A stretch of DNA of 64,000 bases from Heptranchias perlo (Eukaryota), in contig NC_090339.1 in NCBI RefSeq assembly GCF_035084215.1, positions 38,502,001 to 38,566,000 of the forward strand, written 5' to 3'. The notes below the pieces were generated by a model, which saw only the letters and a program-made list of their open reading frames with translations, was not told the DNA's origin and searched no databases. This document shows positions 15,511 through 23,020 of this stretch, piece after piece; positions within the stretch are counted from its first letter, which is position 1; every line of letters starts with the position of its first letter. The position numbers were made by a program, and so were the translations under genes.

Positions 15511-15768
15511 ATGTTACACTGGTTCTCTATGGTGTGATCTTTTGAGGTTGGAGCTGAGGCATATTTTTAGGGCACAGTAGATGAGCTTTACTGAACATCT
15601 AGACGCACGATACCTGACCTGGGAGTGTCTGTTGAAACATGGCATACCTGAAATGGAATGTGTTCCAATCCCCAGCATTAATATCCCTCAGCTTGATGAG
15701 CATAAAATTGAAAATTGGGAGAAAAAAGGTTATAGCAGTAAAATTTATACAGGTTGTTGATGCACTAC

Positions 15769-15967
15769 CTAACACTGTGAGCACTACTGATCCGATGTTA
15801 GTGCCTGTGAAATCCGGTGGATTATTAACTTCACACAGATAACTCCCAGAGTCAGATGGTCGCAACTTTTCAATGGTAATGGATGCATTTCCTGAGTCAT
15901 GTGCTGCCAGTAATCTTCCTTTGAAGTCTTGGCTTATATACGTCAGATTGACCTCAGAAAAATATAT
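15769..15967 (-). CDS. vsig1: vsig1 exon 3 (second half of V domain)
   Basis: Acceptor ttcatttacag|ATA; IYFSEVNLTYISQDFKGRLLAAHDSGNASITIEKLRPSDSGSYLCEVNNPPDFTGTNIGSVVLTVL; donor TTAG|gtagtg. Confidence 0.95.
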
Positions 15968-18373
15968 CTGTAAATGAAAACAGGCACAGTCACAATACAC
16001 AGAATTCAGGATTAAATACCAGCCACAAACCCATGAATGCCTCTACCCAACACAAAACTTCCCCTAATTCGGCACAGACAACACTAGTTCAACAAAGCAC
16101 CAACAGAGGATAGAGCATGTACAAAACAAGAAAGAAGAGCAGGGGCTGCTGTTCTGAGATTTAGGTGCAGATTTAATTTCATTTATGGCACTGGCCTACA
16201 GCTGGAATTAATCATATACAGGCCCAGGAGTACTGATTTCATTTTTTGCTTTCTACTAATTTTTTCCTTTCTACCGGTTGATTCCTTGATGCTGAATGAT
16301 TCCACAGGCGGCCTCCAGTACTTCATCCAACTTGACTTCATCATATATGAGCCAAGACACTGAATGTTGGCAAGCTATTCTTCAATGGAGGGCATCACAG
16401 TCAAGCCCAATCCTGTACTCACCTAACATCCACACATGCATATACAGCAGCAGTCATTGGATAGCGATCAAGAAAAGAAGTCCTGACCAATACACACCAA
16501 TACATGCATTCAGAATTCCTGGACACCTGCCTCCTTTTCCTGTCCTTTCTGGTTGCTTGATTTTGATTTTCTATTTTACTTTCTATTATTTTGCTGCACT
16601 GTATTACCCACCCACCCACCACCACCACCCATTTACCCACCTTTGCTGCTTTCCTTCAAAATCTTTTGCTCTTACTATCTTCTCTCCTTGTCATGCTCTC
16701 CCTCTGTTTATCACTCAATTAACACTGCTGCATCTCAGGAAAAAAGTGGAGTGCTAATTACTATTTCAAAATAAATTATTTCTAACATACGACGTTTCTC
16801 TTATATGGTCTGAAATTCTTCCACAGAGAAAGGGGAGATTTATGCTCATCAAGGTGAAGAATGACGGTGATGGCGGATCTAAAGCCCCTAAATTCCACTC
16901 CGCTGACAGAAGTGTAGCTGGGCAGAACTTATATTTGCCTTAATGTACAGGGGCTGTCCCTGTCAGAGATCCCAGAGTCAGCTGATTAGTAGATTGCTGG
17001 ATGCAACATGAATAGCAATAGGCCTGAAATGCCTTAGGAGGCCCAGAAAACTCACTGTGGGGGGCGGGGGAAGGGGAAGCAGAGGAAGGCAGAGTGTGTT
17101 ATAATTTAAAGGCATCCTGCAATTAAAAGTAACCAGAAAGTGCAGATGGCAGCAGCAAGTGGTAAAAAAAGAAGAGCTGACAATTTTGCTGACAGTGAGT
17201 TGGAGCATTTCTTAAATGAAATAAGGCAGGGCAGGGTTGCATGTTTGGAATCAGTGGCAAAAAGCCTGCAAACTATGCTTCGAGAGCAATTTTGAAGGAA
17301 ATAGCACTGGCAGGAAGTGGAACATTGCTACAGGACACACCTGCAATGTCACAAAAGGTTCAAAGATCTGACAAGGGCAGCAAAGGGAGATGCCATGATA
17401 GCCATGTGTCAAGACTAATAACATAGAACCACAGAGACAAGTGTGCACTGCCATTAGTGTTCCAGCACTACCCTGTGAGATGTCACAGTAAGCAAGGTAT
17501 TAGCAGCTACAATTACTCTATCATCTAGATCCATCCAAATCACCTTCCATCTTATGCATACCTACCTTCTTATACATCACCTTTCATGTTAAAGTTCTCA
17601 TATAGCTGCCAATCTTCTACAAGAGGTAAAAGATGACCAAAATTGAAAAGGAAGGATAAGAGGATGTTTAACACCAATAAGTCCCTTTTTATGCAGGTGT
17701 AAATTGCTCAAAATGGACAGGAACATCAGGCGACAGGCGGAGGACCACCAGATATCTGCATTTTAATCCAGCGTTAAGAAGAGGCAATGGAGGTATTGGA
17801 CATGTACTCCTCTAAAGCAGTAGAGGACAGAGAAGTTGGAGACCCTCCAGCCACAATGGGTTCATTCAAAGCAGATGAATACGTTGCAAATGAAACCTAC
17901 TCCATGTGTATCACATTTGTTGCTTTTATTATTCGGAGAGCCCAAAAGGAGCAGAAAAGGTAATGGATACAACAACTTTAAAGTGATTCTTTTTATCTCC
18001 ACACAAGGAATAAATGGTCAAGCACTGCAAGAAGGCACAGAAGATGAGTTACCTGGACTTTCAAAATTGAGCAGCATCACAAGTAATTCCACTACTATGT
18101 CATTCATTCGATCACTAGCACACACCAGCTTAGAGAGAGAGAGAGTCACTCGGGGTGAATTGGATAGTATACATAAGAACATAAGAACATAAGAAATTGG
18201 AGCAGGAGTAGGCCAATCGGCCCCTCGAGCCTGCTCCGCCATTCAATAAGATCATGGCTGATCTGATCCCAACCACAAATCTAAAGAACACAAGAAGTCG
18301 GAGCAGGACCCGGCCACATAGCCCCTGGGCCCTCTCCGCCACCCACAGGGCATTGACCGATCCGAACTCAGCT

Positions 18374-21322
18374 TCATGTCCAATTTCCTGCCCGCTCCCC
18401 ATAACCCCTAATTCCCTTTACTTCTAGGAAACTGTCTATTTCTGTTTTAAATTTATCTAATGATGTAGCTTCCACAGCTTCCTGGGGCAGCAAATTCCAC
18501 AGACCTACCACCCTCTGAGTGAAGAAGTTTCTCCTCATCTCAGTTTTGAAAGAGCAGCCCCTTATTCTAAGATTATGCCCCCTAGTTCTAGTTTCACCCA
18601 TCTTTGGGAACATCCTTACTGCATCCACCCGATCAAGACCCTTCACAATCTTATATGTTTCAATAAGATCGCCTCTCATTCTTCTGAACTCCAATGAGTA
18701 GAGTCCCAATCTACTCAACCTCTCCTCATATGTCCGCCCCCTCATCCCCGGGATTAACCGAGTGAACCTTCTTTGTACTGCCTCGAGAGCAAGTATGTCT
18801 TTTCTTAAGTATGGAGACCAAAACTGTATGCAGTATTCCAGGTGCGGTCTCACCAATACCTTATATAACTGCAGCAATACCTCCTTGTTTTTATATTCTA
18901 TCCCCCTAGCAATAAAAGCCAACATTCCGTTGGCTTTCTTGATCACCTGCTGCACCTGCATACCAACTTTTTGATTTTCTTGCACTAGGACCCCCAGATC
19001 CCTTTGTACTGCAGTACTTTCCAGTCTCTCGCCATTAAGAAAATAACTTGCTCTCTGATTTTTCCTGCCAAAGTGCATAACCTCACATTTTCCAATATTA
19101 TATTGCATCTGCCAAATCTCCGCCCACTCACCCAGCCTGTCTATATCCCCTTGCAGGTTTTTTATGTCCTCCTCACTCTCTACTTTCCCTCCCATCTTTG
19201 TATCATCTGCAAATTTTGATATGTTGCACTCGATCCCCTCCTCCAAATCGTTAATATAGATTGTAAAGAGTTGGGGACCCAGCACCGACCCCTGTGGAAC
19301 ACCACTGGTTACTGGTTGCCAGTCCGAAAATGAACCATTTATCCCAACTCTCTGCTTCCTGTTTGATAACCAATCCTCCACCCATGCCAGAATATTACCC
19401 CCAATCCCGTGATTTTTTATCTTAAGTAATAATCTTTTATGTGGCACCTTGTCGAATGCCTTCTGGAAGTCTAAATACACTACGTCCACTGGTTCCCCTT
19501 TATCCACCCTATACGTTATATCCTCGAAGAACTCAAGCAAATTTGTCAGACATGACTTCCCCTTCATAAAGCCATGCTGACTTTGTCCTATTAAATTATG
19601 CTTATCTAAATGTTCCGTTACTGTCTCCTTAATAATAGACTCCAAAATTTTACCCACCACAGATGTTAAGCTTACTGGCCTATAATTTCCAGCCTTCTGC
19701 CTACTACCCTTTTTAAATAACGGTGTTACATTAGCAGTTTTCCAATCTGCCGGGACCTCTCCTGAGTCCAGGGAATTTTGGAAAACTATCACCAAAGCAT
19801 CCACAATCCCTACTGCCACTTCCCTCAAGACCCTAGGATGGAAGCCATCAGGTCCAGGGGATTTATCCGCCTTGAGTCCCATTATTTTACTGAGTACCAT
19901 CTCTTGAGTGATTTTAATCGTATTTAGCTCCTCCCCCCCGAGAGTCCCCTGTTTGTCCAGTGTTGGGATATTCTTAGTGTCCTCTACTGTAAAGACTGAA
20001 ACAAAATATTTGTTCAGCATTTTTGCCATCTCCATGTTTCCCACCATTAATTTCCCGGTCTCATCCTCTAAGGGACCTATGTTTGCCTTAGCCACCCTTT
20101 TTCTTTTTATATAACTATAGAAACTCTTGCTATCTGTTTTTATATTTTTTGCTAATTTCTTTTCATAATCTAACTTCCCTTTCTTAATCAATCCTTTAGT
20201 TACTTTTTGCTGTCTTTTGAAGAATTCCCAATCTTCTATCCTCCCACTAAGTTTGGCTACCTTATATGTCCTTGTTTTTAGTCGGATACTATCCTTGATT
20301 TCTTTACTTAGCCACGGGTGGCTGTCATTTCTTTTACACCCTTTTTTCCTCAGTGGAATATATTTATTTTGAAAGTTGTAAAATAACTCCCTAAATGAAC
20401 ACCACTGCTCATGTACCGTCTTACCCTTTAATCTATTTTCCCAGTCCACTTTAATCAATTCCGCTCTCATACCATCATAGTCTCCTTTATTCAAGCTCAG
20501 TACGCTTGTTTGAGTTTCAACCTTCTCACCCTCTAATTGGATATGGAATTCAACCATGTTGTGGTCGCTCGTTCCAAGGGGATCCTTAACTAGGACATTA
20601 TTAATTAATCCTGACTCATTACACAGGACCAGGTCCAAGGTTGCCTGCCCCCTTGTAGGATCAGTTACATACTGCTCAAGAAATCCATCCCTGATGCACT
20701 CAATGAACTCGTCCTCAAGGCTGCTCTGCCCAATTTGATTTGTCCAGTTAATATGATAATTAAAATCCCCCATAATTATGGCTGTTCCCTTATTACATGC
20801 CCCGACTATCTCCTGATTAATACTTCTTCCAGCAGAGTTGCAACTATTAGGAGGCCTATATACTACGCCCACTAATGTTTTTTTTCCCTTATTATTCCTT
20901 ATCTCCACCCAAACTGTTTCATTATCTTGATGCTTTGTCCCAATATCATTTCTCTGTATTACAGTGATTCCTTCCTTTATTAACATAGCCACCCCACCTC
21001 CCCTTCCTTCCTGCCTGTCCTTCCTGATTGTTAAATACCCTGGCATATTTAATTCCCAGTCGTTGTCACCCTGCAGCCATGTTTCTGTAATGGCCACAAG
21101 ATCATACCCATACGTAGTTATTTGTGCCGTTAACTTGTCCATTTTATTACGAATGCTACGTGCATTCAGATAAAGAACTTTCAAATCTGTTTTGTGACGC
21201 TTAGTTCCTGCTTTTTCCTTTTTTAACACTTTACCTATTACTCCATACCTTCTGTCCCTTCCTGTTACGCTTTCCTCTCTCTCCCTGCTCAGGTTCCCAA
21301 CCCCCTGCCACTTTAGTTTAAA
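18374..21322 (-). CDS. CR1 ORF2: AP endonuclease + reverse transcriptase; frame open from the slippery site, no ATG before the first APE motif
   Basis: YLNARS, AITETWL, MGDFN, SDH (APE); [36 protein letters not shown] (RT). The track start at 21229 is GTG, and the frame extends without stops to 21337. Confidence 0.95.
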   Translation of the reverse strand, partial: FKLKWQGVGNLSREREESVTGRDRRYGVIGKVLKKEKAGTKRHKTDLKVLYLNARSIRNKMDKLTAQITTYGYDLVAITETWLQGDNDWELNMPGYLTIRKDRQEGRGGGVAMLIKEGITVIQRNDIGTKHQDNETVWVEIRNNKGKKTLVGVVYRPPNSCNSAGRSINQEIVGACNKGTAIIMGDFNYHINWTNQIGQSSLEDEFIECIRDGFLEQYVTDPTRGQATLDLVLCNESGLINNVLVKDPLGTSDHNMVEFHIQLEGEKVETQTSVLSLNKGDYDGMRAELIKVDWENRLKGKTVHEQWCSFRELFYNFQNKYIPLRKKGCKRNDSHPWLSKEIKDSIRLKTRTYKVAKLSGRIEDWEFFKRQQKVTKGLIKKGKLDYEKKLAKNIKTDSKSFYSYIKRKRVAKANIGPLEDETGKLMVGNMEMAKMLNKYFVSVFTVEDTKNIPTLDKQGTLGGEELNTIKITQEMVLSKIMGLKADKSPGPDGFHPRVLREVAVGIVDALVIVFQNSLDSGEVPADWKTANVTPLFKKGSRQKAGNYRPVSLTSVVGKILESIIKETVTEHLDKHNLIGQSQHGFMKGKSCLTNLLEFFEDITYRVDKGEPVDVVYLDFQKAFDKVPHKRLLLKIKNHGIGGNILAWVEDWLSNRKQRVGINGSFSDWQPVTSGVPQGSVLGPQLFTIYINDLEEGIECNISKFADDTKMGGKVESEEDIKNLQGDIDRLGEWAEIWQMQYNIGKCEVMHFGRKNQRASYFLNGERLESTAVQRDLGVLVQENQKVGMQVQQVIKKANGMLAFIARGIEYKNKEVLLQLYKVLVRPHLEYCIQFWSPYLRKDILALEAVQRRFTRLIPGMRGRTYEERLSRLGLYSLEFRRMRGDLIETYKIVKGLDRVDAVRMFPKMGETRTRGHNLRIRGCSFKTEMRRNFFTQRVVGLWNLLPQEAVEATSLDKFKTEIDSFLEVKGIRGYGERAGNWT

Positions 21323-21885
21323 CCCTCCCCAACAGCACTAGCAAACACTCCTCCTAGGACAGCGGTCCCGGCCCTGCCCAGGTGCAGACCGTCCGGTTTG
21401 TACTGGTCCCACCTCCCCCAGAACCGTTTCCAGTGTCCCAGGAATTTGAATCCCTCCCCCTTGCACCATTCCTCTAGCCACGTATTCATTTGAAATATCC
21501 TCCTATTTCTACTCTGACTAGCACGTGGCACTGGCAGCAATCCTGAGATTACTACCTTTGAGGTCCTATTTTTTAATTTACCTCCTAACTCCCTATATTC
21601 TGCTTTTAGGACCTCATCCCCTTTTTTACCTATATCGTTGGTGCCTATGTGCACCACGACAGCTGGCTGTTCGCCCTCCCCCTCCAAAATGTTCTGTAGC
21701 CGCTCCGAGACATCCTTGATCCTTGCACCAGGGAGGCAACACACCATCCTGGAGTCTCGGTTGCGGCCGCAGAAACGCCTGTCTATTCCCCTTACAATTG
21801 AGTCCCCTATCACTATAGCTCTGCCACTCTTTTTCCTCCCAGCCTGTGCAGCAGAGCTACCCGTGGTGCCAGGAAGTTGGCTGCT
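21313..21885 (-). CDS. CR1 ORF1 C-terminal SGNH/GDSL esterase domain (5'-truncated)
   Basis: IGDSIVRG, CLPGA, HIGTND, DGLHL motifs; ends GEGLN*. Confidence 0.9.
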   Translation of the reverse strand, partial: SSQLPGTTGSSAAQAGRKKSGRAIVIGDSIVRGIDRRFCGRNRDSRMVCCLPGARIKDVSERLQNILEGEGEQPAVVVHIGTNDIGKKGDEVLKAEYRELGGKLKNRTSKVVISGLLPVPRASQSRNRRIFQMNTWLEEWCKGEGFKFLGHWKRFWGRWDQYKPDGLHLGRAGTAVLGGVFASAVGEGLN

Positions 21886-22242
21886 GAGGAAATGTCACTG
21901 GGTGAGTCACACAACACTAGGAATCTTAAGGATGTGAGTGTGGAAGAGAAACCTCAAGTTCCTGAGAGGAGAAAAAAATCAGCTCCTGGCTCTGGAGCAT
22001 GCAGATAATGATCTCAAGGCAGCTCCAATGAAGAGAAGGATGCTAGGGGAGCATCATACAAATATGGAGGCTCTGTGTTCTCACAACATGTGTGGCATAT
22101 GGCTGGAGTTGTGTTCGAATCCAATTCCATCCTCTGTGGCAATGTCAGAGAGGGATTGTCATTGATGCAGTGCATCCTGGAGTGAGTGACAGCTACACGA
22201 ACATCCACATCCATTCCCCAGAACAGGGATGCCACTGAGTGT

Positions 22243-23020
22243 CTCCAGACAAGTGCCAGGCAATGACCACCTCCAACAAGAGAGAATCTAACCACCTCCC
22301 CATGACATTCAACGGCATTACCATCGCCGAATCCCCCACCATCAACATCGTAGGGGTCACCATTGACCAGAAATTTAACTGGACAAGCCACATAAATACT
22401 GTGGCTACAAGAGCAGGTCAGAAGCTGGGTATTCTGCGATGAGTGACTCACCTCCTGACTCCCCAAAGCCTTTCCACCATCTACAAGGCACAAGTCAGGA
22501 GTGTGATGGAATACTCTCCACTTGCCTGGATGAGTGCAGCTCCAACAACACTCAAGAAGCTCGACACCATCCAGGACAAAGCAGTCCGCTTGATTGGCAC
22601 CCCATCCACCACCCTAAACATTCACTCCCTCCACCACCGGCGCACAGTGGCTGCAGTGTGTACCATCCACAGGATGCACTGCAGCAACTCGCCAAGGCTT
22701 CTTCGACAGCACCTCCCAAACTACGACCTCTACCACCTAGAAGGACAAGAGCAGCAGGCACATGGGAACAACACCACCTGCACGTTCCCCTCCAAGTCAC
22801 ACATCATCCCGACTTGGAAATATATCGCCATTCCTTCATCGTCGCTGGGTCAAAATCCTGGAACTCCCTTCCTAACAGCACTGTGGGAGAACCTTCACCA
22901 CACGAACTGCAGCGGTTCAAGAAGTCGGCTCACCACCACCTTCTCAAGGGCAATTAGGGATGGGCAATAAATGCTGGCCTTGCCAGCGACGCCCACATCC
23001 CATGAACGAATAAAAAAAAA
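22243..23020 (+). mobile_element. 3' fragment of a second LINE family (CR1/L2 group, A-tailed)
   Basis: RT thumb LGVTID..W..HI, YKAQVRSVMEYSPLAW; 3' end caagggcaattagggatgggcaataaatg...aataaaaaaa. Confidence 0.88.

Follow-up and report, generated by a model that had tools for sequence, protein, structure and literature searches.

A conserved U_UUA_AAC heptamer at the ORF1/ORF2 junction points to programmed -1 frameshifting in vertebrate CR1 elements

How does a retroelement produce its polymerase when the polymerase frame offers no usable start codon? This question is raised by a copy of CR1, the long interspersed nuclear element (LINE) that dominates in birds, reptiles and cartilaginous fish, which lies on the minus strand of a 64,000-nt stretch of the 3.25-Gb genome of Heptranchias perlo (NC_090339.1, positions 38,502,001-38,566,000; hereafter the window). 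The element has a pair of open reading frames (ORFs); we argue below that ribosomes very probably pass from the first to the second by programmed -1 frameshifting, which, as judged from comparison of sequences, would yield an ORF1-ORF2 fusion.

The junction itself can be described precisely. On the minus strand, ORF1 ends with ...GAG GGT TTA AAC TAA, that is, with the C-terminal peptide ...GEGLN. The slippery heptamer U_UUA_AAC (21322-21316, minus strand) is in phase with ORF1 and is immediately followed by the UAA stop codon (21315-21313), a position occupied by UAA or UAG in 13 of the 13 lineages compared below. The -1 frame, which encodes ORF2 with its apurinic/apyrimidinic endonuclease (APE) as well as its reverse transcriptase (RT), is shut by a TAG at 21340-21338, 15 nt ahead of the heptamer; the two frames overlap by 22 nt, the ORF1 stop excluded. 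From there ORF2 is intact (18374..21337, minus strand), running for 987 codons from stop to stop and for 982 codons from the heptamer. A further in-phase heptamer, G_GGU_UUA (21325-21319), overlaps the first one. A random codon triple from this ORF1 forms an in-phase canonical heptamer with a probability of 0.0018, and the full ORF1 contains three of them in 316 codons, two of which are located at the stop. A sequence-only reading of this stretch had claimed the phased heptamer, the frame that opens after the UAG with an overlap of about 22 nt and no stop through the endonuclease and RT, and a first ORF2 AUG beyond the first endonuclease motif; all of this was confirmed, and every coordinate proved correct. 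The overlapping G_GGU_UUA that it had also named is indeed present, but is lineage-specific, being confined to 4 of the 13 lineages.

Could ORF2 nevertheless possess a start of its own? The ORF1 stop is separated from the endonuclease by a basic, variable linker (21173..21312) in which only the -1 frame is open and no AUG occurs. The first in-frame AUG (21142-21140) is found 3' of YLNARS (21172-21155), the first motif of the APE endonuclease; a profile search of the PDB aligned this motif to residues 8-18 of the human L1 endonuclease, a search with the single protein having returned no match. Since the AUG follows YLNARS, which matches the first strand of the L1 endonuclease, initiation at this codon would cut the enzyme. 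We followed the junction through 13 lineages, nine of which are majority lines from the genome itself and four are single outside contigs, with 36-90% identity over the upstream 70 nt. In 12 of them the -1 frame is shut 3-18 nt upstream of the heptamer. The linker between the heptamer and the endonuclease measures 33-89 codons and cannot be aligned between lineages; its -1 frame is free of stops in 10 of 12 lineages, the same ten having 49 stops in one and 69 in the other of the remaining frames, and the two interrupted cases are majority lines of old families. No Met precedes the endonuclease motif in 8 of the 13 lineages, and in the remaining ones Met occurs at unshared positions, so that no AUG or near-cognate codon has a position common to the lineages compared; a conserved upstream AUG, which would have supplied ORF2 with a conventional start, is accordingly missing. 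A search for longer ORF1 homologues yielded three matches, all chimeric-looking gene models, and no natural full fusion, which is a weak negative.

Is the heptamer maintained by selection? Among copies, TTTAAAC is kept in 28 of the 29 copies of the window family that cover the site (window copy counted), in 24 of 30 copies of a second family represented in the window, and in 11/12 and 9/15 copies of older families. Similarly, in a random sample of 114 stretches of 10 kb (1.14 Mb), searched with an ORF1 profile without the last seven residues and classed by that profile alone, 14 of 16 ORF1 ends carried TTTAAAC (12 in register and 2 shifted by an upstream deletion), and the other two differed by one change. 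Copies decay neutrally, and hence it is the comparison between lineages that provides the real test. In this comparison codon 24 is GGT, GCT, ACT, TAT, CAT or TTT: the amino acid changes six times on the tree and the third base not once. Leu25 is always TTA and Asn26 always AAC, with no changes on the tree, as compared to 4, 6, 8, 4, 5 and 5 changes in the control codons of the invariant residues D1, G2, L3, H4, L5 and G9; in the background, TTA accounts for 38 of 169 Leu codons and AAC for 27 of 88 Asn codons. In pattern scans that left synonymous codons free, TTTAAAC was found in 4 of 4 retroelement matches (three in which the -1 frame encodes an APE, and a 257-bp contig that matches ORF1) and in none of the 41 others, 45 matches in all (Fisher 3.6e-5, against 26 dereplicated others). 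The shift site is under constraint at the nucleotide level. Conservation among copies and synonymous variation between lineages had been named as tests by the sequence-only reading, and both came out in its favour.

The C-termini of related ORF1 proteins extend the picture to organisms for which only the protein was compared. Of 120 ORF1 homologues, 85 end in LN, the named members being from sharks, rays, a bony fish, coelacanth, frogs, turtles and squamates, with a bird as a cluster member. The residue ahead of LN is one without a U-ending codon in 2 of these 85, versus 40/85 and 39/85 at the two preceding positions. Of 150 cluster representatives, 52 were set aside and the C-terminus of the other 98 could be scored; a heptamer-compatible terminal tripeptide is present in 60 of the 98 (LN 44, GN 12, KN 3, NL 1) as compared to 59 of 980 internal positions. 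A distant ORF1 lineage ends mostly in QGN; Q precedes GN in 9 of 12 cases and never precedes LN. At the protein level, the LN, GN and KN ends of distant ORF1s would fit U_UUA_AAC, G_GGA_AAC and A_AAA_AAC, respectively, and heptamers of these types make up three of the four that PMC5009743 names as most prone to shifting. Scans of viral sequences for the LN type gave no match, and a QGN protein used as query against the same genome recovered LN families only. Divergent relatives of the esterase ORF1 were also encountered (P0097, P0107, P0121-P0137); the esterase type of ORF1 is described as found only in vertebrate CR1/L2 groups (PMC4120745).

Taken together, an in-phase X_XXY_YYZ heptamer, a -1 ORF without a start and conservation at the nucleotide level are the marks of a frameshift site, and the comparative tests (heptamer fixed, no shared AUG, linker open only in the -1 frame) support the programmed frameshifting that the sequence-only reading had proposed. 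The phase, the overlap, the open frame, the nucleotide-level conservation and the absence of a shared start codon are direct observations; from them we infer slippage, its rate and the fusion product. Specifically, most ribosomes would end the esterase ORF1 at the UAA just past U_UUA_AAC, while in a minority the Leu and Asn tRNAs would slip back in tandem by one base, and translation would continue across the linker, the endonuclease and the RT. The product would be a single ORF1-ORF2 fusion with the junction ...GEGLN-LKWQG... and, for a full-length copy, about 1,296 aa, so that the ratio of ORF1p to polymerase would be set as in Gag-Pol. Tandem -1 slippage would account for the phase, the overlap and the U that is fixed upstream, and also for the linker being open and for the switches between heptamer types.

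Several observations weigh against programmed frameshifting or weaken the tests of it. The compared lineages are related, and the majority lines of families E and C3, both old, are interrupted by indels. AAC also encodes Asn6 in 10 of the 10 lineages that have Asn there, and hence Asn26 by itself is weak evidence. The pattern scans imposed L/F-N-stop, and the profile used to search for ORF1 C-termini contained LN and GN ends. The protein test at residue 24 is not significant once dereplicated (1/26, p 0.21). No terminal match is seen in 38 of the 98 representatives; in 23 of the 38, one occurs at positions 22-31 instead (in nine of them as KN at position 28), the corresponding figure for control windows being 57 of 228. 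DNA searches for the QGN and KN lineages yielded none, the four matches from one search having no APE downstream. Lineage G (three copies) carries UAAUG at the ORF1 stop, a stop-start of the SART1 type, and UAAUG occurs also in 3 of 30 copies of family B. Finally, no conserved stimulatory structure was found, the hairpin being weak and a quadruplex being predicted in fewer than half of the lineages; an Rfam search gave no match; and pairing of the 3' UTR with the downstream G-run did not exceed that of shuffles (34-249 of 300).

Lineage G brings up the best-surviving alternative, termination-reinitiation, whereby ribosomes that stop at UAA would begin anew in the -1 frame on an overlapping codon, AUG or otherwise, making ORF2p a separate protein. 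The UAAUG of this lineage is in the ORF2 frame, SART1 provides a precedent for it (PMC3708506), initiation of L1 ORF2 is described as AUG-independent (PMC5009743), and reinitiation would likewise keep the linker open. However, an AUG at the stop is missing in 12 of the 13 lineages, the codon that overlaps the stop is cognate or near-cognate in 4 of the 8 UAA lineages (about chance, 7 in 16) and in none of the 5 UAG lineages, and reinitiation leaves unexplained both the fixed U upstream of Leu25 and the LN, GN and KN ends that obey X_XXY_YYZ. We consider this mechanism unlikely. In the three family-G copies (L204, L233 and L245) the frameshift and stop-start signals coincide, and ORF2 of L245 is intact over 985 codons.

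Still less probable is polymerase slippage, in which RNA polymerase II or the RT of the element would add a base at runs of G, T or A, so that the frames would be fused in some RNAs. In 5 of 31 family-D copies, nine G instead of eight precede the heptamer and the frames are fused (1,290 aa in L216 and 1,271 aa in L217). Yet most of these copies were chosen because their frames are long, and an assembly error in the homopolymer is possible; the upstream G-run is missing from most lineages, the longest run in the heptamer being 3; and no such insertion is among the variants listed in the contigs of four runs. No listed variant falls within L329:1604-1620, which we do not count as support given similar gaps nearby. 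A lengthened G-run 5' of the heptamer was noted in L216 (C12:60971500-60977500), L217 (C12:56496000-56502000), L188, L219 and L221-L224; the extra G in family-D copies may reflect real slippage or homopolymer assembly error and says nothing on function.

Splicing or internal initiation as the source of the ORF2 start, e.g. through a CUAAC-like branch point and CAG/G after the stop, is highly improbable: families A, B, D and G do have ...ACUAA(N)2-3UGGCAG/G, but the branch-point-like motif is missing in the other nine lineages, there is no pyrimidine tract, and, in line with the sequence-only reading, no splice joint spans the junction in the contigs of four runs (weak evidence, the RNA status of these contigs being guessed). 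The notion that the site is conserved for the sake of the C-terminal Leu-Asn of ORF1 or as a DNA motif can be given as little credence, since, near-invariant as LN is in vertebrate ORF1s, a need of the protein cannot fix synonymous positions, distant lineages swap Leu for Gly or Lys while keeping the slippery rule, ORF2 would be left without a start, and the lineage synonymous-site test and the free-codon scans largely refute it. Each of these four explanations leaves main observations unexplained.

If programmed frameshifting operates here, what would make the ribosome pause? The CAGG/CCUG hairpin suggested by the sequence-only reading has a predicted energy of -6.5 kcal/mol and z of -0.3 to -0.7, i.e., it is no stabler than shuffles, and it is not kept across lineages; a local hairpin was hence rejected as the conserved stimulator. 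The G-quadruplex suggested with it is predicted in only 6 of 13 lineages, mostly as two-tier, and marginally in the window copy. What is conserved is the G-run itself (G5 then G3; 21296..21305, minus strand), a candidate stimulator: each of the 11 vertebrate-type lineages has five or more G in a row beginning 7-11 nt past the heptamer, although these may simply encode glycine. Pairing of the G-run over a long range, with ORF2 or with the 3' UTR, was likewise rejected, as no partner recurred and the level of shuffles was not exceeded. The two most distant elements, L121 and L145, have hairpins at the stimulator position, in L121 a 9-bp one directly downstream (z -2.69) and in L145 one with z -0.43; L123 folds to almost nothing. 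One may speculate that in vertebrates the pause would come from the adjacent stop together with the G-run, as a two-tier quadruplex or bound by a protein, rather than from a hairpin, and that a hairpin would replace the G-run in the two distant elements. The proposal that vertebrate CR1 swapped a hairpin stimulator for a stop-adjacent G-run, possibly read by a protein and possibly by its own ORF1p, is tentative, and we hold it to be slightly less probable than its negation. If it were true, no recoding signal in the genomes of birds, reptiles and sharks would be more abundant, and the stimulator would be of a new type.

How does this junction compare with known systems? By its ORF1, the element resembles the vertebrate CR1 with type IVB ORF1 (zf/lz + esterase; CR1 subgroup 7 of PMC4120745), sharing a CxxC N-terminus, the SGNH esterase, the APE-RT ORF2, the short 3' tandem tail and frequent 5' truncation. 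With coronavirus ORF1a/1b (U_UUA_AAC) and retroviral gag-pol it shares the heptamer class, the short -1 overlap and a polymerase that would be made as a fusion (PMC5009743, PMC11818727); unlike those sites, the vertebrate CR1 lineages have no pseudoknot or stable stem-loop, the stop directly follows the heptamer, and a G-run occupies the stimulator position. SART1 and L1, with their UAAUG and unconventional ORF2 initiation, respectively, accomplish the same task, translation of ORF2 on a bicistronic LINE RNA, but in CR1 the invariant element is the heptamer, the stop-start occurring in 1 of 13 lineages only. Translation of LINE ORF2 is described as unclear (PMC3708506, PMC5009743). The closest precedents are the Dictyostelium elements TRE5-A and TRE3-A, likewise APE-type non-LTR (long terminal repeat) elements, for which a review legend states that a -1 frameshift is needed for ORF2 (PMC5911963); their clade and ORF1 differ from those of CR1, and the covered portion of a second review on TRE elements does not use the word frameshift. 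For Paramecium LINEs, +1 frameshifting or reinitiation has been suggested.

Neither a slippery site, nor a mode of ORF2 translation, nor frameshifting in CR1 was found described in the literature searched, several older papers being outside its coverage. The CR1 papers of 1997 may have commented on the ORF overlap. The covered part of PMC5009743 does not mention CR1; portions of PMC11835228, PMC5405496, PMC4255032, PMC3905857, PMC4316615, PMC5633606 and PMC1925062 were also included. This is a real, strongly conserved signal of the recoding type and would be a known mechanism in a family for which no description was found, and its novelty is limited because the mechanism is known from viruses and stated for the TRE elements. 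If the CR1 polymerase is indeed a fusion with ORF1, it would be tethered to the esterase/RNA-binding domain; hence, annotations in which ORF2 begins with an internal Met would be wrong. Expression constructs of CR1 would have to include the junction, and vertebrate cells would hold shift sites of the coronavirus type by the tens of thousands, on which anti-frameshift factors of the host could act. The 10-nt site makes a cheap and decisive test of ORF2 translation possible.

As to the element as a whole, truncation at 21886 has removed the 5' end of the window copy, the ORF1 start included, which corrects the sequence-only reading. What remains is the 3' part of ORF1 (21313..21886, minus strand), an SGNH/GDSL esterase (Pfam Lipase_GDSL_2); sister copies about 99.5% identical carry the full 316-aa ORF1 (e.g. 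L001:738-1688), including a zinc-finger-like CxxC..CxxC N-terminus missing from the truncated copy, and tandem repeats are seen in the 5' UTR region upstream of ORF1 in L001 and L015. ORF2 contains the Pfam domains Exo_endo_phos and RVT_1. CR1 elements end in short tandem repeats instead of poly(A), and the 3' UTR of the window copy (18172..18373, minus strand) does have a short terminal tail, (TTCTTATG)n. This UTR contains two similar units of stem-loop plus tail in tandem, at about 18330-18285 and about 18225-18172, and its 3' end may thus have been duplicated or swapped. The SGNH esterase ORF1 and the APE and RT of ORF2 fit a LINE of the CR1 type; the assignment is based on homology of ORF1 to proteins of shark, ray, coelacanth, amphibian, turtle, squamate and bird, the closest named relatives being from sharks and rays. 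A first look at the genome returned about 62,000 ORF1 candidates.

The second, older CR1 family is represented in the window by a plus-strand copy with TTTAAAC at its ORF1/ORF2 junction (45903..45909), in which the stop is mutated and the G-run lengthened. An Ig V-set exon (Pfam PF07686) lies at 15599-16042 on the minus strand, and the CR1 copy is probably intronic to an Ig-domain gene of the same strand. Vertebrate-type CR1 sequence also turned up in bacterial assemblies, in a Jeotgalibacillus contig (L164, NZ_JARUIU010000154.1) and in a protein labelled Pseudomonas aeruginosa (P0006), which is likely contamination. A fragment of a different LINE (22245-22970, plus strand) faces the truncated 5' end of the CR1 copy head to head, and the same LINE family is found in or beside other CR1 copies (L006, L012, L027 and L029).

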